A DNA stretch of 25,018 nt from a virus, in the UHGV virus genome UHGV-1360762; one strand, 5' to 3'. Made by a program: the position numbers and the translations under genes. Shown here one piece after another: positions 6,508 through 18,014 of this stretch. Position 1 is the first letter of the stretch. Each line of letters starts with the position of its first letter. Below the pieces are notes generated by a model. The model saw nothing but the letters and a program-made list of their open reading frames with translations, was not told the DNA's origin and made no database searches.

Positions 6508-6981
6508 CTAGAACGGAATATCCGAATCGTCGAAGTTCATAGGTGGTTCGCTGTGATTTCCATGCTGCTGAGGTTGCTGTCTTTGTTGATGACCATTATT
6601 TCGCTGAGGTGAAGACTGTTCATTGCCTCCTTGCTTGCCACCAAGCATTTGCATGGTTCCACCAACGCCCACGATGACTTCGGTAGTGAACCGATCCTGT
6701 CCGCTTTGATCCTGCCATTTTCTTGTCCGCAACTTGCCTTCAAGATAAACCTCAGAGCCTTTTCGCAGATATTCGCTGGCAATTTCTGCCAGTTTCCCGC
6801 TCATTACCACGCGGTGCCACTCCGTCTGCTCCTTTTGCTCTCCAGTTTGCTTATCACGCCATTGTTCTGACGTAGCAACTGTAAGGTTTGCAAATGCCGT
6901 TCCTGATGGTGAATATCTGATTTCTGGATCATGCCCAAGGCGACCAATAATGATCACCTTATTTACGCCTCTGCTTGCCAT
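6508..6981 (-). CDS. ssb: Single-stranded DNA-binding protein
   Basis: OB-fold N-terminus ([17 protein letters not shown]...), Gly/Gln-rich linker and the canonical acidic tail DDSDIPF. Confidence 0.92.
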
Positions 6982-8352: not shown

Positions 8353-8553
8353 TCAGGCAGCTTTGTTGTTCTGTTTACCAAGTTCTCTGGCAATCATTGC
8401 CGTCGTTCGTATTGCCCATTTATCGACATATTTCCCATCTTCCATTACAGGAAACATTTCTTCAGGCTTAACCATGCATTCCGATTGCAGCTTGCATCCA
8501 TTGCATCGCTTGAATTGTCCACACCATTGATTTGTATCAATAGTCGTAGTCAT
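8353..8553 (-). CDS. ral: Ral (restriction alleviation), lambda-like
   Basis: 66-aa MTTTIDTNQWCGQFKRCNGCKLQSECMVKPEEMFPVMEDGKYVDKWAIRTTAMIARELGKQNNKAA matches recalled lambda Ral in length and sequence. Confidence 0.8.
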   Translation of the reverse strand: MTTTIDTNQWCGQFKRCNGCKLQSECMVKPEEMFPVMEDGKYVDKWAIRTTAMIARELGKQNNKAA

Positions 8554-8631: not shown

Positions 8632-8931
8632 TCAAATAAGTGGTTTGCTGCCTAATTTCATTTTCTGGCGACCAACACAAGTCACCCCCATTTCACTGCG
8701 TGGCTTGCGGTAGTAAATACGGTTCTGTTTACGCTCGACTTCATCTGCCTTCTTGCAGAGAAGGCTTCCGAGTGATGCTGCTTTGTCTGCTCTGACGCAA
8801 CCAGAGAGCTTTAGCGCAATTTTTCGCGCCAGTCGCTGCTCTTGCATCGCCTGTTCACGTTGAGCCTGTCTGCGTGCTCTGCGGCGATTTCTGGCGTTAT
8901 CGTCAGCCAGATATGTAATGACTACTGTCAT
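8632..8931 (-). CDS. N: N-type transcription antiterminator with arginine-rich motif (phage-21-like)
   Basis: ARM NARNRRRARRQAQREQ near the N-terminus; C-terminal half resembles recalled phage 21 N (…KPRSEMGVTCVGRQK.KLGSKPLI); first gene downstream of pL/nutL; GGAGGT RBS. Confidence 0.85.
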   Translation of the reverse strand: MTVVITYLADDNARNRRRARRQAQREQAMQEQRLARKIALKLSGCVRADKAASLGSLLCKKADEVERKQNRIYYRKPRSEMGVTCVGRQKMKLGSKPLI

Positions 8932-9414: not shown

Positions 9415-9500
9415 GCTTAAATTTAAGATCTCTTTAATTAATGGTCAAGAGTATTTTTGAAGAAAACTTAAATTTTCTTTCGTAACTTAAGTTTGGCTTT
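9415..9500 (-). promoter_or_regulatory. OL operators and pL promoter (P22-type operator half-sites)
   Basis: ATTTAAGATCTCTTTAAT at 9421-9438 resembles P22 18-bp operators; minus-strand TTGACC (rc of 9443-9448) with downstream TAAAT-type -10; sits between the cI terminator and nutL. Confidence 0.6.
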
Positions 9501-9515
9501 GATTTTTAAAGGAAA

Positions 9516-9541
9516 TAAAAAAAGGGGCGAATGCCCCCTTA
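9516..9541 (-). terminator. Rho-independent terminator immediately 3' of the repressor gene
   Basis: AAAAAAAGGGGCGAATGCCCCCTT; on the minus strand GGGGGCATTCGCCCC followed by TTTTTTT. Confidence 0.75.
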
Positions 9542-10189
9542 TGGAAGGTTTGCTAGTTTTGCATCGACAACTACGCCGATGATTTTGCAGTTTCCGTTGA
9601 TCTCGATCATCGGATATTGTGGGTTAAGTGGTTTTAGAAACTTCCTGCCTGCATCAATAACTAACTTCTTGAAAGTTGCCTCGTTTTCTCCTTCGAGCTT
9701 TGCAACTACCAGTTTCCCGTTACGCGGCTCTACTTCAGGATCGACGAGTATTATCATTCCTTCAGGGATACTGAGACCGGCCGGAGCCGTCATTGAGTCT
9801 CCCTTCACGTCCAACCAAAACGAATCTTCTGAACAGTCTACGGTTGTATCGTACCAGTTATCTATTGCACGCTTATGATATGGTTCTACAGCTTCCATCC
9901 AGCATCCTGCGCTCACCCAGCTAATCAGAGGGTATGACCCTCTTGGATCATGCCTACTGTGATAGGCAATGTTTGAAAGACTTTCCTCTCCTTTCATCAG
10001 ATAGTCAGGGGAACACTTCAACGCATTAGCCAGGGCGAGAAGATTCTCTCCATTTGGCTCTGTCTCAGAGCGTTCCCACTGAGATATGGCAACATTAGAC
10101 ACGCCGACCATCTTTCCAAGTGCGGCCTGCCTGATCTTGAGTTCTTTTCTCCGAGCGCGAATGCGCTCTCCCATCAATTGAGTTTTCAT
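9539..10189 (-). CDS. cI: Prophage repressor, P22 C2-type (HTH N-domain, LexA-like autocleavage C-domain)
   Basis: 216-aa protein near-identical to recalled P22 C2 (…TQLMGERIRARRK.LKIRQAALGKMVGVSNVAISQWERSETEPNGENLLAL…). Confidence 0.95.
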   Translation of the reverse strand: MKTQLMGERIRARRKELKIRQAALGKMVGVSNVAISQWERSETEPNGENLLALANALKCSPDYLMKGEESLSNIAYHSRHDPRGSYPLISWVSAGCWMEAVEPYHKRAIDNWYDTTVDCSEDSFWLDVKGDSMTAPAGLSIPEGMIILVDPEVEPRNGKLVVAKLEGENEATFKKLVIDAGRKFLKPLNPQYPMIEINGNCKIIGVVVDAKLANLP

Positions 10190-10262
10190 AGTTAAGACAT
10201 CTTAAATAAACTTGACTTAAGATTCCTTTAGTGGATAATTTAAGTGTTCTTTAATTTCGGAG
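10190..10262. promoter_or_regulatory. OR operators with divergent pR and pRM
   Basis: OR1-like ATTTAAGTGTTCTTTAAT at 10238-10255; pR -35 TTGACT (10212-10217), 17-bp spacer, -10 ATAATT (10235-10240). Confidence 0.75.
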
Positions 10263-11154: not shown

Positions 11155-12102
11155 ATGAGCAATACAGCAAAAATCTACGATTTCAGCGCCGCACACGAGC
11201 GCAGGAGCAACAGGATGGAGAACCAGAAAACTGGTTACATTCCGTTGTACCGGAGCATTCTGAAACAGTCATGGGCGAAAGATGTTTATCTTCGCACCAT
11301 GTGGGAAAACCTTCTCCTGAATGCCGCCAGAAAGCCATACAAAGCGAATTTCAAAGGTAATGAATGGCATCTGCAACCCGGTCAACTGGTTGTGACAGCA
11401 GCTGATTTAGGTCTTCAGTTATGCGACAGACATGGCAAGCCAGCAAGCCGTGATCAGGTTGAGCGGATGCTTCAGGTTTTTGTGAAAGAGGGGATGATCT
11501 CCATTGATGGAGAGAAGCAAAAAGGTCGTGTGATAACAATCACAAATTACCATGAATATGCTCAAAAAATGGACAATTTACCCGCACATGAAGCCGCACA
11601 AACAACCGCACATGATGACGCACATGGCGAAGCCAGTAATGGCGCGGCTTTCAGCGTACATGCCACACATGAAAGCGCACATGAAGCCGCACAAACAACC
11701 GCACATCATGAACAAGAAGGTATTAACAAGAATATAAATAATACCCCCCTACCCCCCAATGGGGGCGGCGATGGGCAGGTTAAACCTGAACGTCGCAAGG
11801 CAGAACGAATCGACTACGAATCCTTCCTGAGCGCCTACAACACCGAAGTCGGTGACAGACTTCCACACGCTGTTGCGGTCAACGAGAAACGCAAACGCCG
11901 CCTGAAGAAAATCATCCCGCAACTGAAAACGCCAAACGTGGACGGTTTCAGGGCGTATGTCAGGGCGTTTGTGCATCAGGCCAAGCCGTTTTACTTCGGA
12001 GACAACGACACGGGCTGGACGGCCGATTTTGATTACCTGCTGAGGGAAGATTCGTTAACGGGAGTTCGGGAAGGGAAGTTTGCAGACAGGGGGATTGCAT
12101 GA
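11155..12102 (+). CDS. O: Replication initiator, O-like (origin-binding)
   Basis: Position after cII; iteron repeats and AT-rich tract inside the coding sequence as in lambda O/ori; followed by a helicase gene with ATGA overlap. Confidence 0.8.
11580..11745. repeat. ori: Replication origin: iterons within the O-like gene plus adjacent AT-rich tract
   Basis: 29-bp direct repeat CACATGAAGCCGCACAAACAACCGCACAT at 11585-11613 and 11678-11706, further GCACATG-type motifs between, then AACAAGAAGGTATTAACAAGAATATAAATAATA. Confidence 0.7.
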
Positions 12103-13500: not shown

Positions 13501-13531
13501 AGGCCTGCTGGTAATCGCAGGCCTTTTTATT
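13501..13531 (+). terminator. tR2-like rho-independent terminator after the helicase gene
   Basis: AGGCCTGC TGGTAATC GCAGGCCT stem-loop followed by TTTTTATTT. Confidence 0.75.
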
Positions 13532-13547: not shown

Positions 13548-13754
13548 GTGGTTGAATTTATGCTCGTCGCACTCAAATTCGTTGGCGTTGGATGGATTCT
13601 TCTGACGTTTTTTATTGTTCTGCATAGCTACATTCGTCTTGTGAATGACGGTAAAGAACCATGGTATACGTTGTTTGGTGCTGCATTTGTCTGGGTGATT
13701 ATCGGTGTTATGCCTGTCGCTGTAGCCAAAATGGCGTGGCGTTTTTTTAGTTGA
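13548..13754 (+). CDS. Small predicted membrane protein (68 aa, two hydrophobic helices)
   Basis: GTG start 7 nt after GGGGGAGGG; two hydrophobic segments (LVALKFVGVGWILLTFFIVL and LFGAAFVWVIIGVMPVAVA). Confidence 0.55.
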   Translation: MVEFMLVALKFVGVGWILLTFFIVLHSYIRLVNDGKEPWYTLFGAAFVWVIIGVMPVAVAKMAWRFFS

Positions 13755-13755
13755 G

Positions 13756-14208
13756 GTGACAATGAAGCAAATATACATGCTTCGCAACGAAGCAATCAGA
13801 AACAACGCCATAGACGCAATACTCTCACTTCCGATCGACGACAAGTCACCTCACGAAGTCCACGTTAAAGAACCCAAGCGGAGCAATCCTCAAAACCGCC
13901 TTATGTGGGCGTTATTGCAGGACGTATCGCGTCAGGTGCTTTGGCATGGAAAGAGACTTGCGCCGGAGGACTGGAAAGATCTGTTCACTGCCCTGTGGCT
14001 TAAGACCAAAAAACTGGAGCAACGAAGTGCGCCTGGTATCGACGGTGGCGTTGTCATGCTTGGCGTGCGTACCAGCAAAATGCGAAAGGCCAACATGACT
14101 GAGCTTATCGAAATCATGTTCTGGTTCGGCTCAGAGCGCAACGTGCGGTGGAGTGATGACTCCCGGCGAGAGTATGAATGGTCACAACGAAAAGGGGAGG
14201 CTGCATGA
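13756..14208 (+). CDS. ninB: NinB-like recombination protein
   Basis: Collinear similarity to recalled lambda NinB (…QNR.LWA.L.DVSRQV.WHG…, SDD(E)SR.EYEW..R.GE.AA C-terminus). Confidence 0.8.
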   Translation: MTMKQIYMLRNEAIRNNAIDAILSLPIDDKSPHEVHVKEPKRSNPQNRLMWALLQDVSRQVLWHGKRLAPEDWKDLFTALWLKTKKLEQRSAPGIDGGVVMLGVRTSKMRKANMTELIEIMFWFGSERNVRWSDDSRREYEWSQRKGEAA

Positions 14209-14732
14209 CTATCAAATCAAATACGCCAGCACACGACAAGGACTGCTGGCAAACGCCGCTTTGGCTTTTTGATGCACTGGATATTGAGTTTGGATTCTGG
14301 CTGGATTCGGCAGCGAGCGACAAAAATGCTCTATGTGCTCACTGGCTAACTGAGGCCGACGACGCGCTCAATTCTGAGTGGGTAAGCCACGGTGCAATCT
14401 GGAATAACCCACCGTACAGCAATATCAGGCCGTGGGTGGAAAAAGCCGCTGAGCAGTGCATGCAACAGCGACAGACGGTAGTGATGCTTGTGCCAGAGGA
14501 TATGTCAGTAGGATGGTTCAGCAAGGCTCTGGAGAGCGTTGACGAAGTTCGCATCATCACTGATGGACGGATTAATTTTATCGAACCATCGACAGGGCTG
14601 GAGAAGAAGGGGAACAGCAAAGGTTCCATGCTGCTGATTTGGCGACCGTTCATCAGTCCTCGACGGATGTTTACTACCGTATCCAAAGCGGCATTGATGG
14701 CGATCGGGCAGGGCGTAAGGAGGGCGGCATGA
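14205..14732 (+). CDS. Phage DNA N6-adenine methyltransferase (Dam-like)
   Basis: Catalytic motif IV NPPY (WNNPPYSN); ATG at 14205 preceded by AAAGGGGAGG and overlapping the ninB stop; occupies the lambda ninC slot. Confidence 0.75.
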
Positions 14733-14905
14733 GACGACAGCGACGAAGTATCACCGACATAATCTGTGAAAACTGCAAATACCTTCCAACGAAACGCTCC
14801 AGAAATAAACCCAAGCCAATCCCAAAAGAATCTGACGTAAAAACCTTCAATTACACGGCTCACCTGTGGGATATCCGGTGGCTAAGACATCGTGCGAGGA
14901 AATGA
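14729..14905 (+). CDS. ninE: NinE
   Basis: [58 protein letters not shown] matches recalled lambda NinE; start overlaps the methyltransferase stop. Confidence 0.85.
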
Positions 14906-15309
14906 CAATGCTTTTAATTCAACCTGGATTTGGACTTAGCATCAAAAAAGGCCACATGTTTGGCGAGAAAGAGTCACAACGAAAAATGGTGTCTATCCGG
15001 TTGCCATTTATCAGTATTTATTGGCTAAACAGGGAGGCAACAAATTATTGGTATACATGCGCCAGAGCAGCATTTAACGACCCTGACTGGTTTGTGAAAA
15101 ACCACCACGCAGTTCGTCAGGCAAAGAGAAAGGCCAACCTGACATACATGAAGGCGTATCAAAAAGCATGGAAAGAACACCGCGATCGATACCAGCAAGA
15201 CATGGAAAAGCTTGAATCAGAAAACATGGAATTAAGACGAAAGCTTGGTGAAGCAAAACGAGATATTGATGCTTACAAGCGACTTTTTAATGGTGAAAGC
15301 CATGCTTAG
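14902..15309 (+). CDS. Hypothetical protein (135 aa) at the ninE-ninF junction, C-terminal coiled coil
   Basis: ATG at 14902 preceded by GAGGAA, overlapping the ninE stop (ATGA). C-terminus [31 protein letters not shown] looks coiled-coil. Same position as P22 ninX; homology not verified. Confidence 0.5.
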
Positions 15310-15478
15310 TCCATCCCAATCCCTTCAATACCAGAAAGAAAGCGTCGAGCGGGCTTTAACGTGCGCTAACTGCGGTCAGAAGCTGCATGTGCTGGAAGTT
15401 CACGTGTGTGAGCACTGCTGTGCAGAACTGATGAGCGATCCGAATAGCTCAATGTACGAGGAAGAAGACGATGAGTGA
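15302..15478 (+). CDS. ninF: NinF
   Basis: [51 protein letters not shown]... matches recalled lambda NinF. Confidence 0.85.
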   Translation: MLSPSQSLQYQKESVERALTCANCGQKLHVLEVHVCEHCCAELMSDPNSSMYEEEDDE

Positions 15479-15980
15479 TGTTAAAGAAAAAGATATCCCC
15501 GGCTTTGAGGGTATATATAAAGTAACTGAAAATGGAGACATCATTTCATGCCGTAAATCAAAAAAATTATCTCATGGCATTAAACCAGGAGGATATGCAT
15601 TTGTCGGTCTGTATCCAGGTGGCGGGAAAAGACCATCATATAAAATGGTTCACAGAATTGTTGCAGAAGTATTTATTGATAACCCAGATGGCAAACCGGA
15701 AGTTAATCACAAGGATGGAAATAAACTTAATAATAAAGTTGAAAATCTTGAGTGGGTAACGCGAACAGAAAATGCGAAACATGGATTTGATTCCGGATTG
15801 CTTGTTCATGGGTTTAATCATCACTTCTGCAAACTAACGCCAGAACAAGTGAAATCAATATATAAATCAAAAGGCAAATACAGAGATATAGCCAAAGAAT
15901 TTGGTGTTTGTGCGCAGACAGTGTGCAACATAAAAAACAAATCAGCGTACCGACGTTTTTTGGAGGGGATTGATGTTTAG
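15471..15980 (+). CDS. HNH homing endonuclease (NUMOD4-like N-terminus plus HNH_3)
   Basis: GFEGIYKVTENGDIIS (NUMOD4-like) and VHRIVAEVFIDNPDGKPEVNHKDGNKLNNKVENLEWVTRTENAKH (HNH_3-like); coding sequence visibly more AT-rich than neighbours. Confidence 0.8.
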   Translation: MSDVKEKDIPGFEGIYKVTENGDIISCRKSKKLSHGIKPGGYAFVGLYPGGGKRPSYKMVHRIVAEVFIDNPDGKPEVNHKDGNKLNNKVENLEWVTRTENAKHGFDSGLLVHGFNHHFCKLTPEQVKSIYKSKGKYRDIAKEFGVCAQTVCNIKNKSAYRRFLEGIDV

Positions 15981-16248
15981 AAGCAAAAAATGGCTTCAGG
16001 CAGTCAGGGATATTGAATTTTGCGTTCTTTGCGGAAGATACGGAGTTCAGGCCGCTCACAGAAATGAAGGGAAGGGGGTTGGGATTAAAGTAGATGATTG
16101 CCTTACTGCTGCGCTATGTGTTGATTGTCATTCAAGAATTGATAATGGGAGAGATATGAGCAGGGAAGAGCGAAGGGCTGAAATGGATCGGGCCATTGTG
16201 CTTACCCTTAAAAAATTGGTTAACAATGGGAGGGTGTTTGTCCAATGA
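15970..16248 (+). CDS. YbcO-like (DUF1364) zinc-binding nin-region protein
   Basis: Cys/His pattern C..CG…AH…ALC..CH..ID and location directly upstream of rusA, as in DLP12 ybcO-rusA. Confidence 0.6.
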   Translation: MMFRSKKWLQAVRDIEFCVLCGRYGVQAAHRNEGKGVGIKVDDCLTAALCVDCHSRIDNGRDMSREERRAEMDRAIVLTLKKLVNNGRVFVQ

Positions 16249-16607
16249 ACGAATATCAGTTTGTGCTTCCATACCCGCCGTCGCTGAACACCTACTGGCG
16301 AAGACGGGGAAGCCAATATTACATAAGCGATAAAGGCCAGAAATACCGAAAAGACGTTCAGCAAATCATCCACCAACTCAAGTTAGACATTTTCACCAAA
16401 TCACGACTCCGCATCAAAGTAATCGCAGACGTTCCAGACTCCCGCCGCCGCGACCTCGATAACATCCTGAAAGGTTTACTCGACTCACTTATCCACGCCG
16501 GATTTGCGGAAGACGACGAGCAATTCGATGACATTCGCGTAATTCGTGGTGTGAAAGTACCAGGTGGAAGGCTTGGAATAAAAATCACCGAACTGGAGAA
16601 CGCATGA
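16245..16607 (+). CDS. rusA: RusA Holliday junction resolvase
   Basis: 120-aa protein with LPYPPS.N.YWRRRG and DVPDSRRRDLDNILKGLLDSL matching the RusA family. Confidence 0.9.
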   Translation: MNEYQFVLPYPPSLNTYWRRRGSQYYISDKGQKYRKDVQQIIHQLKLDIFTKSRLRIKVIADVPDSRRRDLDNILKGLLDSLIHAGFAEDDEQFDDIRVIRGVKVPGGRLGIKITELENA

Positions 16608-16792
16608 ACGCCACAATTCAAACGATACCAGAGCTTCTTATCCAGACACGAGGCAATCAGACCGAAGTGGCAAGGATGCTTTCCTGCGCAAGAGGAACAG
16701 TGCTCAAGTACAACCGAGACAGCAAAGGCGAGCGTCACGTAATAGTTAACGGCGTCCTGATGGTCAAACAAGGCAAGAGGGGAAGACGATGA
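16604..16792 (+). CDS. ninH: NinH-like DNA-binding protein
   Basis: TIPELLIQTRGNQTEVARMLSCARGTVLKYNRDSKGERHVIVNGVLMV resembles recalled lambda NinH. Confidence 0.8.
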   Translation: MNATIQTIPELLIQTRGNQTEVARMLSCARGTVLKYNRDSKGERHVIVNGVLMVKQGKRGRR

Positions 16793-17307
16793 GCATAAGA
16801 GAACTAAACCTCACCAAAGAGCAGCACGAGTGGCTGAATGGCTGGCTTGAACTGTGGGGCGCATGGGTTTATTCAGGTCGTCTGGAAAAGCGCATGAGCA
16901 GCGTAATAGCGAAGTTCATGGAGAGCGTAGAGCCGGGAAGAGTTATGACAAGGCCAATGTGCAATGATGATGATGGAATGTTGATTTCTCAGGTCGTCGA
17001 TTCCGTCATGTGCATTGACAAGAAAGCCTTTGGCATCCTCCTCAGCTACTACGCTCATGGTTCATCTAAGCGAGCAATTGCATCCTACTATCACGCGACT
17101 GCAAAGCCACGCAAGATGTGTGGACGTGGTGGCGAGGGATGGAGAAAACCTTCACTGGCAACCTGTAGAAACGAAATTGACGACATCCTGAAAGCGTCGT
17201 TATTTGTTTTGTACCAGCCAATGCAAAATGCTTTCAAAATGCGTAAACGTGTTGAGAAAGTTAAGCATGTTGCTGTTAAAAGCCTTGACATGCAATTATC
17301 CATTTAG
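16789..17307 (+). CDS. Q: Late gene antiterminator Q (phage-82-type Phage_antitermQ family)
   Basis: LELWGAW… and TRPMCNDDDGMLISQVV motifs resemble the ERWGAW / RPQCCDDD signatures of this family; followed directly by a promoter and short-leader terminator. Confidence 0.75.
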   Translation: MSIRELNLTKEQHEWLNGWLELWGAWVYSGRLEKRMSSVIAKFMESVEPGRVMTRPMCNDDDGMLISQVVDSVMCIDKKAFGILLSYYAHGSSKRAIASYYHATAKPRKMCGRGGEGWRKPSLATCRNEIDDILKASLFVLYQPMQNAFKMRKRVEKVKHVAVKSLDMQLSI

Positions 17308-17320
17308 CCATAATATTCAC
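17285..17320 (+). promoter_or_regulatory. pR' late promoter / qut region (-35 TTGACA 17285-17290, -10 CATAAT 17309-17314)
   Basis: Consensus -35 with 18-bp spacer to a near-consensus -10, overlapping the Q stop codon; terminator about 40 nt downstream. Confidence 0.6.
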
Positions 17321-17344: not shown

Positions 17345-17369
17345 CAACCATCACAAGCCCACCTCCTGT
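17345..17369 (+). terminator. tR'-like rho-independent terminator (AAGCCCAC CTCCT GTGGGCTT + TTTTT)
   Basis: Perfect 8-bp GC-rich stem, 5-nt loop and T-run immediately downstream of the putative pR'. Confidence 0.8.
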
Positions 17370-17501
17370 GGGCTTTTTTGCATTCGCGTGCAATCAAAAC
17401 AAGAGTCTTAGTGATATGGGCCTGAGATATGGTGGTGGAAACATCGCTCCGCTCTTGGCTGTCATATCTACGCGAACAGGCTCTATCCCTAAGGTAAAGC
17501 G

Positions 17502-18014
17502 ATGAAAGAAATAAAATTAACGCCAGAAATGGTGCTTTCTGTTGTTGATTACAATCCATCATCAGGCGACTTTCACTGGAGATGGAGGCAGGGGAGAGAG
17601 AGGACCACTTTGACATGGAACTCTCGTTTTGCTTTCAAGAAATGCTCATCAATAAATTCTGATGGGTATTTAATGATTATGATTAATGGTAAAGCATACC
17701 CTGCTCACAGACTGGCATGGTTGATTGTTTATGGCACCATGCCCGATGGTTTTATTGATCACATCAACAGGGTAAGAACAGATAACCGGATATCAAATCT
17801 TCGTCTTGTCACTCATTCCGAAAATATGCAGAACAGGAAAATTCAGAAGAATAATAAATCTGGATACCGTGGCGTGTCTTGGGATGCTAAGTACGGGAAA
17901 TGGAGAGCAAGAATTAATGCGTCTGGAAAGTGTATTAACCTTGGATACCATGACACTGCCGAACTTGCCGCTGCGGCTTTTGAGGCCGCCAGAATTAAAT
18001 ATCATACCGTTTAA
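17502..18014 (+). CDS. HNH endonuclease with C-terminal AP2 DNA-binding domain (homing-endonuclease-like)
   Basis: HNH_3-like core (…AHRLAWLIVYGTMPDGFIDHINRVRTDNRISNLRLVTHSENMQN) followed by AP2-like YRGVSWDAKYGKWRARINASGKCINLGYHDTAELAAAAFEAA; AT-rich coding sequence. Confidence 0.8.
   Translation: MKEIKLTPEMVLSVVDYNPSSGDFHWRWRQGRERTTLTWNSRFAFKKCSSINSDGYLMIMINGKAYPAHRLAWLIVYGTMPDGFIDHINRVRTDNRISNLRLVTHSENMQNRKIQKNNKSGYRGVSWDAKYGKWRARINASGKCINLGYHDTAELAAAAFEAARIKYHTV

Follow-up and report, generated by a model that had tools for sequence, protein, structure and literature searches.

A phage Dam-family adenine methyltransferase gene as an optional nin-region cassette in a P22-like phage of E. 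coli

Phage Dam and host Dam have the GATC target in common and belong to distinct families, as described in PMC7139368. The alpha-class enzymes (PF02086), represented by E. coli Dam, T4 Dam and DpnM, carry out the same reaction as the phage family, with the same reported GATC target and a common Rossmann-type methyltransferase core. Within the phage family, purification of T1 Dam as a DNA methyltransferase goes back to Scherzer et al. (1987, JBC, cited in PMC7139368), and for the VT-2 enzyme Dam-like GATC methylation 'has been shown', according to PMC7139368, which cites Radlinska & Bujnicki 2001 (PMID 11720311). The REBASE-based Table 3 of PMC6602927 gives GATC for M.EcoVT2 and credits its cloning to Radlinska & Bujnicki 2001. 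A caveat to such assignments, raised in PMC10810198, is that over-produced Dam-like enzymes can methylate off-target sites. HP1 Dam is placed in the same family by the annotation note of VT2-Sakai, whose own Dam is M.EcoVT2Dam in REBASE and has copies in 933W, Sf6 and many Stx1/Stx2 phages. The GATC evidence for the VT-2 enzyme reportedly comes from plasmid expression in vivo.

The stretch of DNA analysed here, 25,018 nucleotides in length and referred to as the window, belongs to a mosaic P22-like (HK620/CUS-3/Sf6-type) phage or prophage of E. coli, whose closest relatives are CUS-3, HK620 and similar phages. The genes cI, cro, O and P were placed in it along with the features listed in Table 1, and the gene order in the region of interest is O, P, ninB, dam, ninE, ..., ninF-like, rusA, ninH, Q. 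In the rightward early operon dam follows P, precedes Q and is joined to its neighbours through ATGA, as is the case for a lambdoid nin cassette. An intact open reading frame, read from the sequence and the ORF list, extends from the ATG to a TGA at 14730-14732, making up a gene of 528 bp whose 175-aa product carries NPPY at residues 68-71, and the NPPY methyltransferase gene named in the original prediction is confirmed at this place.

Table 1. Coordinates of dam, its motifs and signals, and other features of the window
Feature	Position	Strand	Basis or remark
dam, 175-aa phage N6-adenine DNA methyltransferase	14205..14732	+	PF05869/TIGR01712; orthologue of M.EcoVT2Dam
LDSAAS, motif-I-like putative AdoMet-binding strand end, aa 33-38	14301..14318	+	function inferred
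Motif IV NPPY, catalytic loop, aa 68-71	14406..14417	+	N68, P69, P70, Y71 invariant in 41 homologues
Shine-Dalgarno AAGGGGAGG for dam, within ninB 3' end	14192..14200	+	read from sequence
Shine-Dalgarno TAAGGAGG for ninE, within dam 3' end	14716..14723	+	read from sequence
ninB (orf), recombination mediator	13762..14208	+	PF05772 1.9e-48; phrog_72
ninE	14729..14905	+	PF05322 4.4e-44
ral, restriction-alleviation gene, leftward operon	8353..8553	-	PF11058 1.7e-48 over 66/66 residues
N	8632-8931	-	weak Pfam match and CUS-3 annotation
pR-like promoter TTGACT-16-GATAAT, upstream of cro	10212..10239	+	consensus scan; presumed source of the dam transcript
Strong terminator-like hairpin and T-run downstream of P, lambda tR2 position	13501..13524	+	consensus scan; function by lambda analogy
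68-aa hydrophobic ORF	13548-13754	+	
135-aa ORF	14902-15309	+	
NinF-like ORF	15245-15478		
NUMOD4 + HNH_3 homing-endonuclease-like gene	15471-15980	+	
rusA	16245-16607		
Q	16789-17307		
pR'-like promoter, downstream, near Q	17285-17314		consensus scan
tR'-like terminator, downstream, near Q	17355-17375		consensus scan
HNH_3 endonuclease gene with C-terminal AP2 DNA-binding domain	17502-18014	+	

The dam product matches the Pfam family PF05869, 'DNA N-6-adenine-methyltransferase (Dam)', with an E-value of 3.8e-65 and 219.1 bits against a cutoff of 28.1, over positions 1-167 of 169, and the NCBIfam equivalog TIGR01712, 'phage N-6-adenine-methyltransferase', with 1.6e-79 and 265.2 bits against a cutoff of 97.05, over positions 1-165 of 165. 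Since both bit scores lie far above their cutoffs, the match is not a chance one, and phrog_111 also matches the protein at 2.8e-87. A protein search returned 265 homologues; among the matches listed, 120 of 120 carry PF05869, the named ones come from Enterobacterales, and homologues at 60-85% identity across this order keep their length, which points to purifying selection. In an alignment of 41 homologues with 59-98% identity, all 45 of the 45 family-invariant positions are intact in the window protein, and L33, D34 and A36 of LDSAAS, a stretch on the predicted strand E31-36, are invariant. NPPY is the sole (D/N/S)PP(Y/F/W/H) motif of the window within a long ORF (184 aa stop-to-stop), the other match being an SPPF at nt 8682 in a 51-aa ORF. 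By profile and motif, the window gene is an N6-adenine methyltransferase of the T1/HP1/VT2 'phage Dam' family. The Dam-like N6-adenine assignment made earlier is upheld, and its motif-IV region, whose failure to align with N6-adenine methyltransferase families had been named as grounds for giving the assignment up, does align through the full-length profile match and the invariant NPPY. Membership in the host-type Dam family (alpha-class, PF02086; motif order I, recognition domain, IV) was not found for the protein, nor was membership in MT-A70, as dam gives no MT-A70 Pfam match and the six-frame translation of the window contains no DPPW.

The ATG at 14205 is preferred as the start because AAGGGGAGG precedes it, because the PF05869 and TIGR01712 matches run from the first few residues, and because it is the annotated dam start in VT2-Sakai and Oslo; the longest form of the ORF, beginning at ATG 14178, was rejected in its favour. 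An antisense ORF at 14339-14863 (174 aa) is without a family match and was treated as spurious. For ninB, the PF05772 match begins at residue 3 of the ORF starting at GTG 13756, and the window gene and H0104 of VT2-Sakai are of equal length. The ATGA overlaps claimed for both ends of dam are present, with the ninB stop TGA (14206-14208) overlapping the dam ATG at 14205-14208 and the dam stop overlapping the ninE ATG (14729-14731) at 14729-14732. Besides the ATGA overlap, dam and ninE each carry a ribosome-binding site of their own, that of ninE being near-perfect, and translational coupling of dam to ninB is plausible from the sequence.

The closest described enzyme is VT2-Sakai Dam (BAA94133.1), which is identical at 174 of 175 residues, the sole difference being the conservative M86 of the window against I86. 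The two loci are alike in dam length, in the order ninB-dam-ninE and in the ATGA overlaps, but differ in their carriers, a P22-like podovirus-type phage (HK620/CUS-3-like) for the window and a Stx2 phage for M.EcoVT2Dam. T1 Dam (M.T1; NC_005833 ST20) falls into the same Pfam family (PF05869, 1.7e-70) and has the WxTP, LDxAAS and NPPYS motifs in common with the window protein at 34% identity over 158 aa, whereas T1 Dam is longer (237 aa), with about 45 extra aa at its N terminus and an insertion inside the protein, and T1 is a lytic phage in which the gene neighbourhood of dam differs. Given the near-identity to VT2-Sakai Dam and the published GATC reports, the expected target of the window enzyme is predictable as GATC, with G(m6A)TC as the product, and the original statement that the sequence does not reveal the target specificity does not stand. 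The gene, its family, its position and the reported GATC specificity are already part of the literature and of routine annotation.

The best explanation overall, and one that we consider likely, is that the locus encodes a GATC-methylating phage Dam, an allele of M.EcoVT2Dam carried as an optional nin cassette, which tops up the GATC methylation of the phage. The cassette would have entered precisely where ninB stops and ninE starts, at the conserved GGGC(G/T)GCATGA junctions that serve the exchange of nin cassettes. By analogy with lambda, dam would be transcribed in lytic growth only, on the rightward delayed-early transcript; the gene is located beyond the tR2-like terminator and upstream of Q, and N would let RNA polymerase pass the terminator downstream of P, leading to dam expression. 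Translation would proceed from the strong ribosome-binding site of the gene itself, possibly coupled to ninB. The virion DNA of P22 and lambda is described as under-methylated by host Dam, with replication apparently outrunning methylation (PMC8022706). The phage Dam would top up GATC methylation on fast-replicating phage DNA left under-methylated by host Dam, and packaged genomes would be fully G(m6A)TC-modified whatever the host supply of Dam. The benefit, which is the least certain step, would most likely be that the DNA escapes GATC-cutting, methylation-sensitive restriction enzymes when the phage enters its next host; this is the classical rationale for such methylation and agrees with the original idea of self-methylation. 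A point against this explanation is that E. coli hosts already possess Dam, and methylation-sensitive GATC-cutting restriction systems are not known to be common in E. coli.

Self-methylation by dam together with Ral, proposed earlier as layered anti-restriction, would be a plausible arrangement. The ral gene placed upstream is genuine, with the correction that it lies on the minus strand. The two genes belong to different operons and are not physically linked, and CUS-3, which has ral but lacks dam, shows that they assort independently.

The frequency of GATC in the phage DNA bears on the role of the enzyme. Over positions 1-25018 the window shows a strong deficit of GATC, with 41 sites where about 97-123 would be expected (O/E 0.33); among palindromic 4-mers only CTAG ranks lower. 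The sites are locally clustered around the immunity region (9427-10133) and at 6693-6952. The corresponding O/E values are 0.36 for the dam-less CUS-3 segment and 0.78 for T1. As GATC is equally depleted in the window and in dam-less CUS-3, dam has not visibly relaxed GATC avoidance; no dam-linked relaxation is seen between 0.33 and 0.36, a comparison of two sequences with a mostly shared backbone. An avoidance unchanged with or without dam also counts in favour of a different role for the same GATC m6A chemistry, namely the blunting of MutH-directed mismatch repair and SeqA binding in place of anti-restriction, in which fast conversion of hemimethylated to fully methylated GATC would favour recombination of diverged phages or tune replication or transcription. 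Over-production of Dam narrows the hemimethylated interval on which MutH relies, the host provides a Dam of its own, and the gene stands among recombination functions, with ninB/orf directly upstream and rusA further along, all of which would agree with such a role. The nin-region position may, however, merely reflect where cassettes can insert, and in lytic T1 the homologue has other genes around it; on balance, a role directed at MutH and SeqA is considered unlikely.

The slot between ninB and ninE is occupied differently among related phages. CUS-3 has ninB-ninE with nothing between, the window, VT2-Sakai and Sf6 have ninB-dam-ninE, lambda has ninB-ninC-ninD-ninE, and Salmonella phage Oslo has ninB-dam-ninC-ninD-ninE. 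Lambda NinC (PAPS-reductase-like) and NinD use the same ninB/ninE slot and ATGA junction as dam, but the proteins are unrelated. The original prediction that dam replaces ninC is right as to the position in the slot and fails otherwise, as the lambda slot holds ninC together with ninD and Oslo has dam and ninC side by side. Because Oslo carries both genes and CUS-3, the closest relative of the window, carries neither, dam is independent of ninC, and, judged from these gene orders, it is an independent optional cassette, dispensable in close relatives, and not a specific ninC substitute.

All nin cassette boundaries examined carry a junction of roughly 10 nt that resembles GGGC(G/T/A)GCATGA, in the form GGGCTGCATGA at lambda ninB/ninC and Sf6 ninB/dam, GGGCGGCATGA at CUS-3 ninB/ninE and the window dam/ninE, and GGGCAGCATGA at Oslo dam/ninC. 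The dam cassette thus sits between the two copies of an imperfect direct repeat (14196-14208 and 14720-14732), and the junction repeat fits cassette exchange by recombination at microhomologies. ATGA overlaps in the window occur at 12099 (O/P), 14205, 14729, 14902, 16245, 16604 and 16789, and they are found at most nin-region junctions of both the window and lambda; according to PMC8022706, numerous ATGA overlaps generally characterise the nin regions of all lambdoid phages. The dam locus illustrates, in clean textbook form, how cassettes are exchanged at nin-region ATGA junctions. Elsewhere in its own genome, CUS-3 is annotated with 'boundary sequences'.

The dam gene is widely distributed, occurring at 95-99% nucleotide identity in 244 phage records (Stx1/Stx2 phages, Sf6, IME10 and others), most of which have NinB and NinE annotated on either side, and, at a threshold of at least 95% nucleotide identity, in 1566 of 5426 complete E. 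coli genomes (~29%), with up to five copies per genome. The PGAP label in E. coli is 'phage N-6-adenine-methyltransferase', between 'recombination protein NinB' and 'NinE family protein'. Such a spread, eased by the common ATGA junctions, could also be that of a selectively near-neutral passenger with little fitness gain in Dam-proficient enterobacteria, in line with the four presence/absence states of the slot among close relatives and with the degenerate Dam fusions and truncations common in prophages (P0002, P0014, P0024 and many partial clusters). Standing against a passenger are the full set of intact invariant positions in the window protein, the identity of at least 95% kept across the E. 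coli genomes and phage records, and the purifying selection indicated by the Enterobacterales homologues among the matches listed, and this possibility is regarded as distinctly unlikely.

Two further observations concern natural forms of the gene. The variant P0002 is an in-frame Dam-NinE fusion of 233 aa with 41 member sequences, involving a small change at the ATGA junction, and in other natural variants an N-terminal piece of NinB is fused to Dam through a deletion; the fusion variants are probably decaying prophage copies. The Sf6 RefSeq record NC_005344 has no CDS between Sf6p50 (ninB) and Sf6p52 (ninE), and the Sf6 DNA in that slot (1413-1940 of the Sf6 segment compared) is 97.5% identical to the window dam. 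The missing Sf6 CDS is read as an annotation gap, or possibly a defective copy.

A PDB sequence search returned no member of the 175-aa phage Dam family. The AlphaFold2 model, built from a 41-sequence alignment, has a pLDDT of 84 and a pTM of 0.84 and forms a single domain of alternating strands and helices, in which LDSAAS lies about 30 residues before NPPY and no further domain follows NPPY. The model corresponds to a small AdoMet methyltransferase of class I (Rossmann-like) fold that lacks a target-recognition domain of its own, and in this predicted form dam looks like a bare catalytic core, most like the gamma-class N6-adenine methyltransferases. A Foldseek search with the model gave nothing at E<=1e-3; the best match, above this value, is PCIF1, a cap-specific adenosine methyltransferase (RNA cap m6Am writer). 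GATC might be recognised by dimerisation or by the conserved loops at aa 37-62 and 121-140, and the enzyme might have a second substrate or a partner. With PCIF1 as the nearest solved fold, the tight coupling to NinB and the natural Dam-NinE fusions, its role could then lie in phage recombination or RNA modification instead of anti-restriction, a reading that we hold to be quite improbable.

An enzyme that acts on RNA, or that methylates adenines regardless of sequence, possibly aided by a partner protein, would have precedents in the prophage enzymes M.EcoGII (non-specific) and M.EcoPA8orf6770P (16S rRNA, with PNB-2) and would suit the missing recognition domain, the PCIF1 neighbour and the rRNA preference reported for another Stx-phage 'Dam-like' enzyme (PMC10810198), but the rRNA enzyme belongs to a different family (MT-A70) and GATC is reported for VT-2 and T1, which leaves such an action with a very slight probability. 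The rRNA enzyme, M.EcoPA8orf6770P/M.EcoGV, which according to PMC10810198 methylates 16S rRNA and requires the PNB-2 subunit, is, like dam, an orphan adenine methyltransferase of prophages and bears a Dam-like annotation in the same phage group; it was rejected as a counterpart, being an MT-A70 protein with DPPW against NPPY and with another genome position.

Several neighbouring genes were recorded alongside dam. The 135-aa ORF, which starts with an ATGA at ninE and has a coiled-coil-like C-terminal half, gave no significant family match, and neither did the hydrophobic 68-aa ORF between the tR2-like terminator and ninB. The NUMOD4 + HNH_3 homing-endonuclease-like gene lies between the NinF-like ORF, which it overlaps by 8 nt (ATGAGTGA), and a YbcO/DUF968-like ORF, and gives the impression of a mobile insertion within the nin region. 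Another HNH_3 endonuclease gene, the one with the AP2 domain, is located just past the pR'-like promoter and tR'-like terminator, in the slot that holds the toxin genes in Stx phages.
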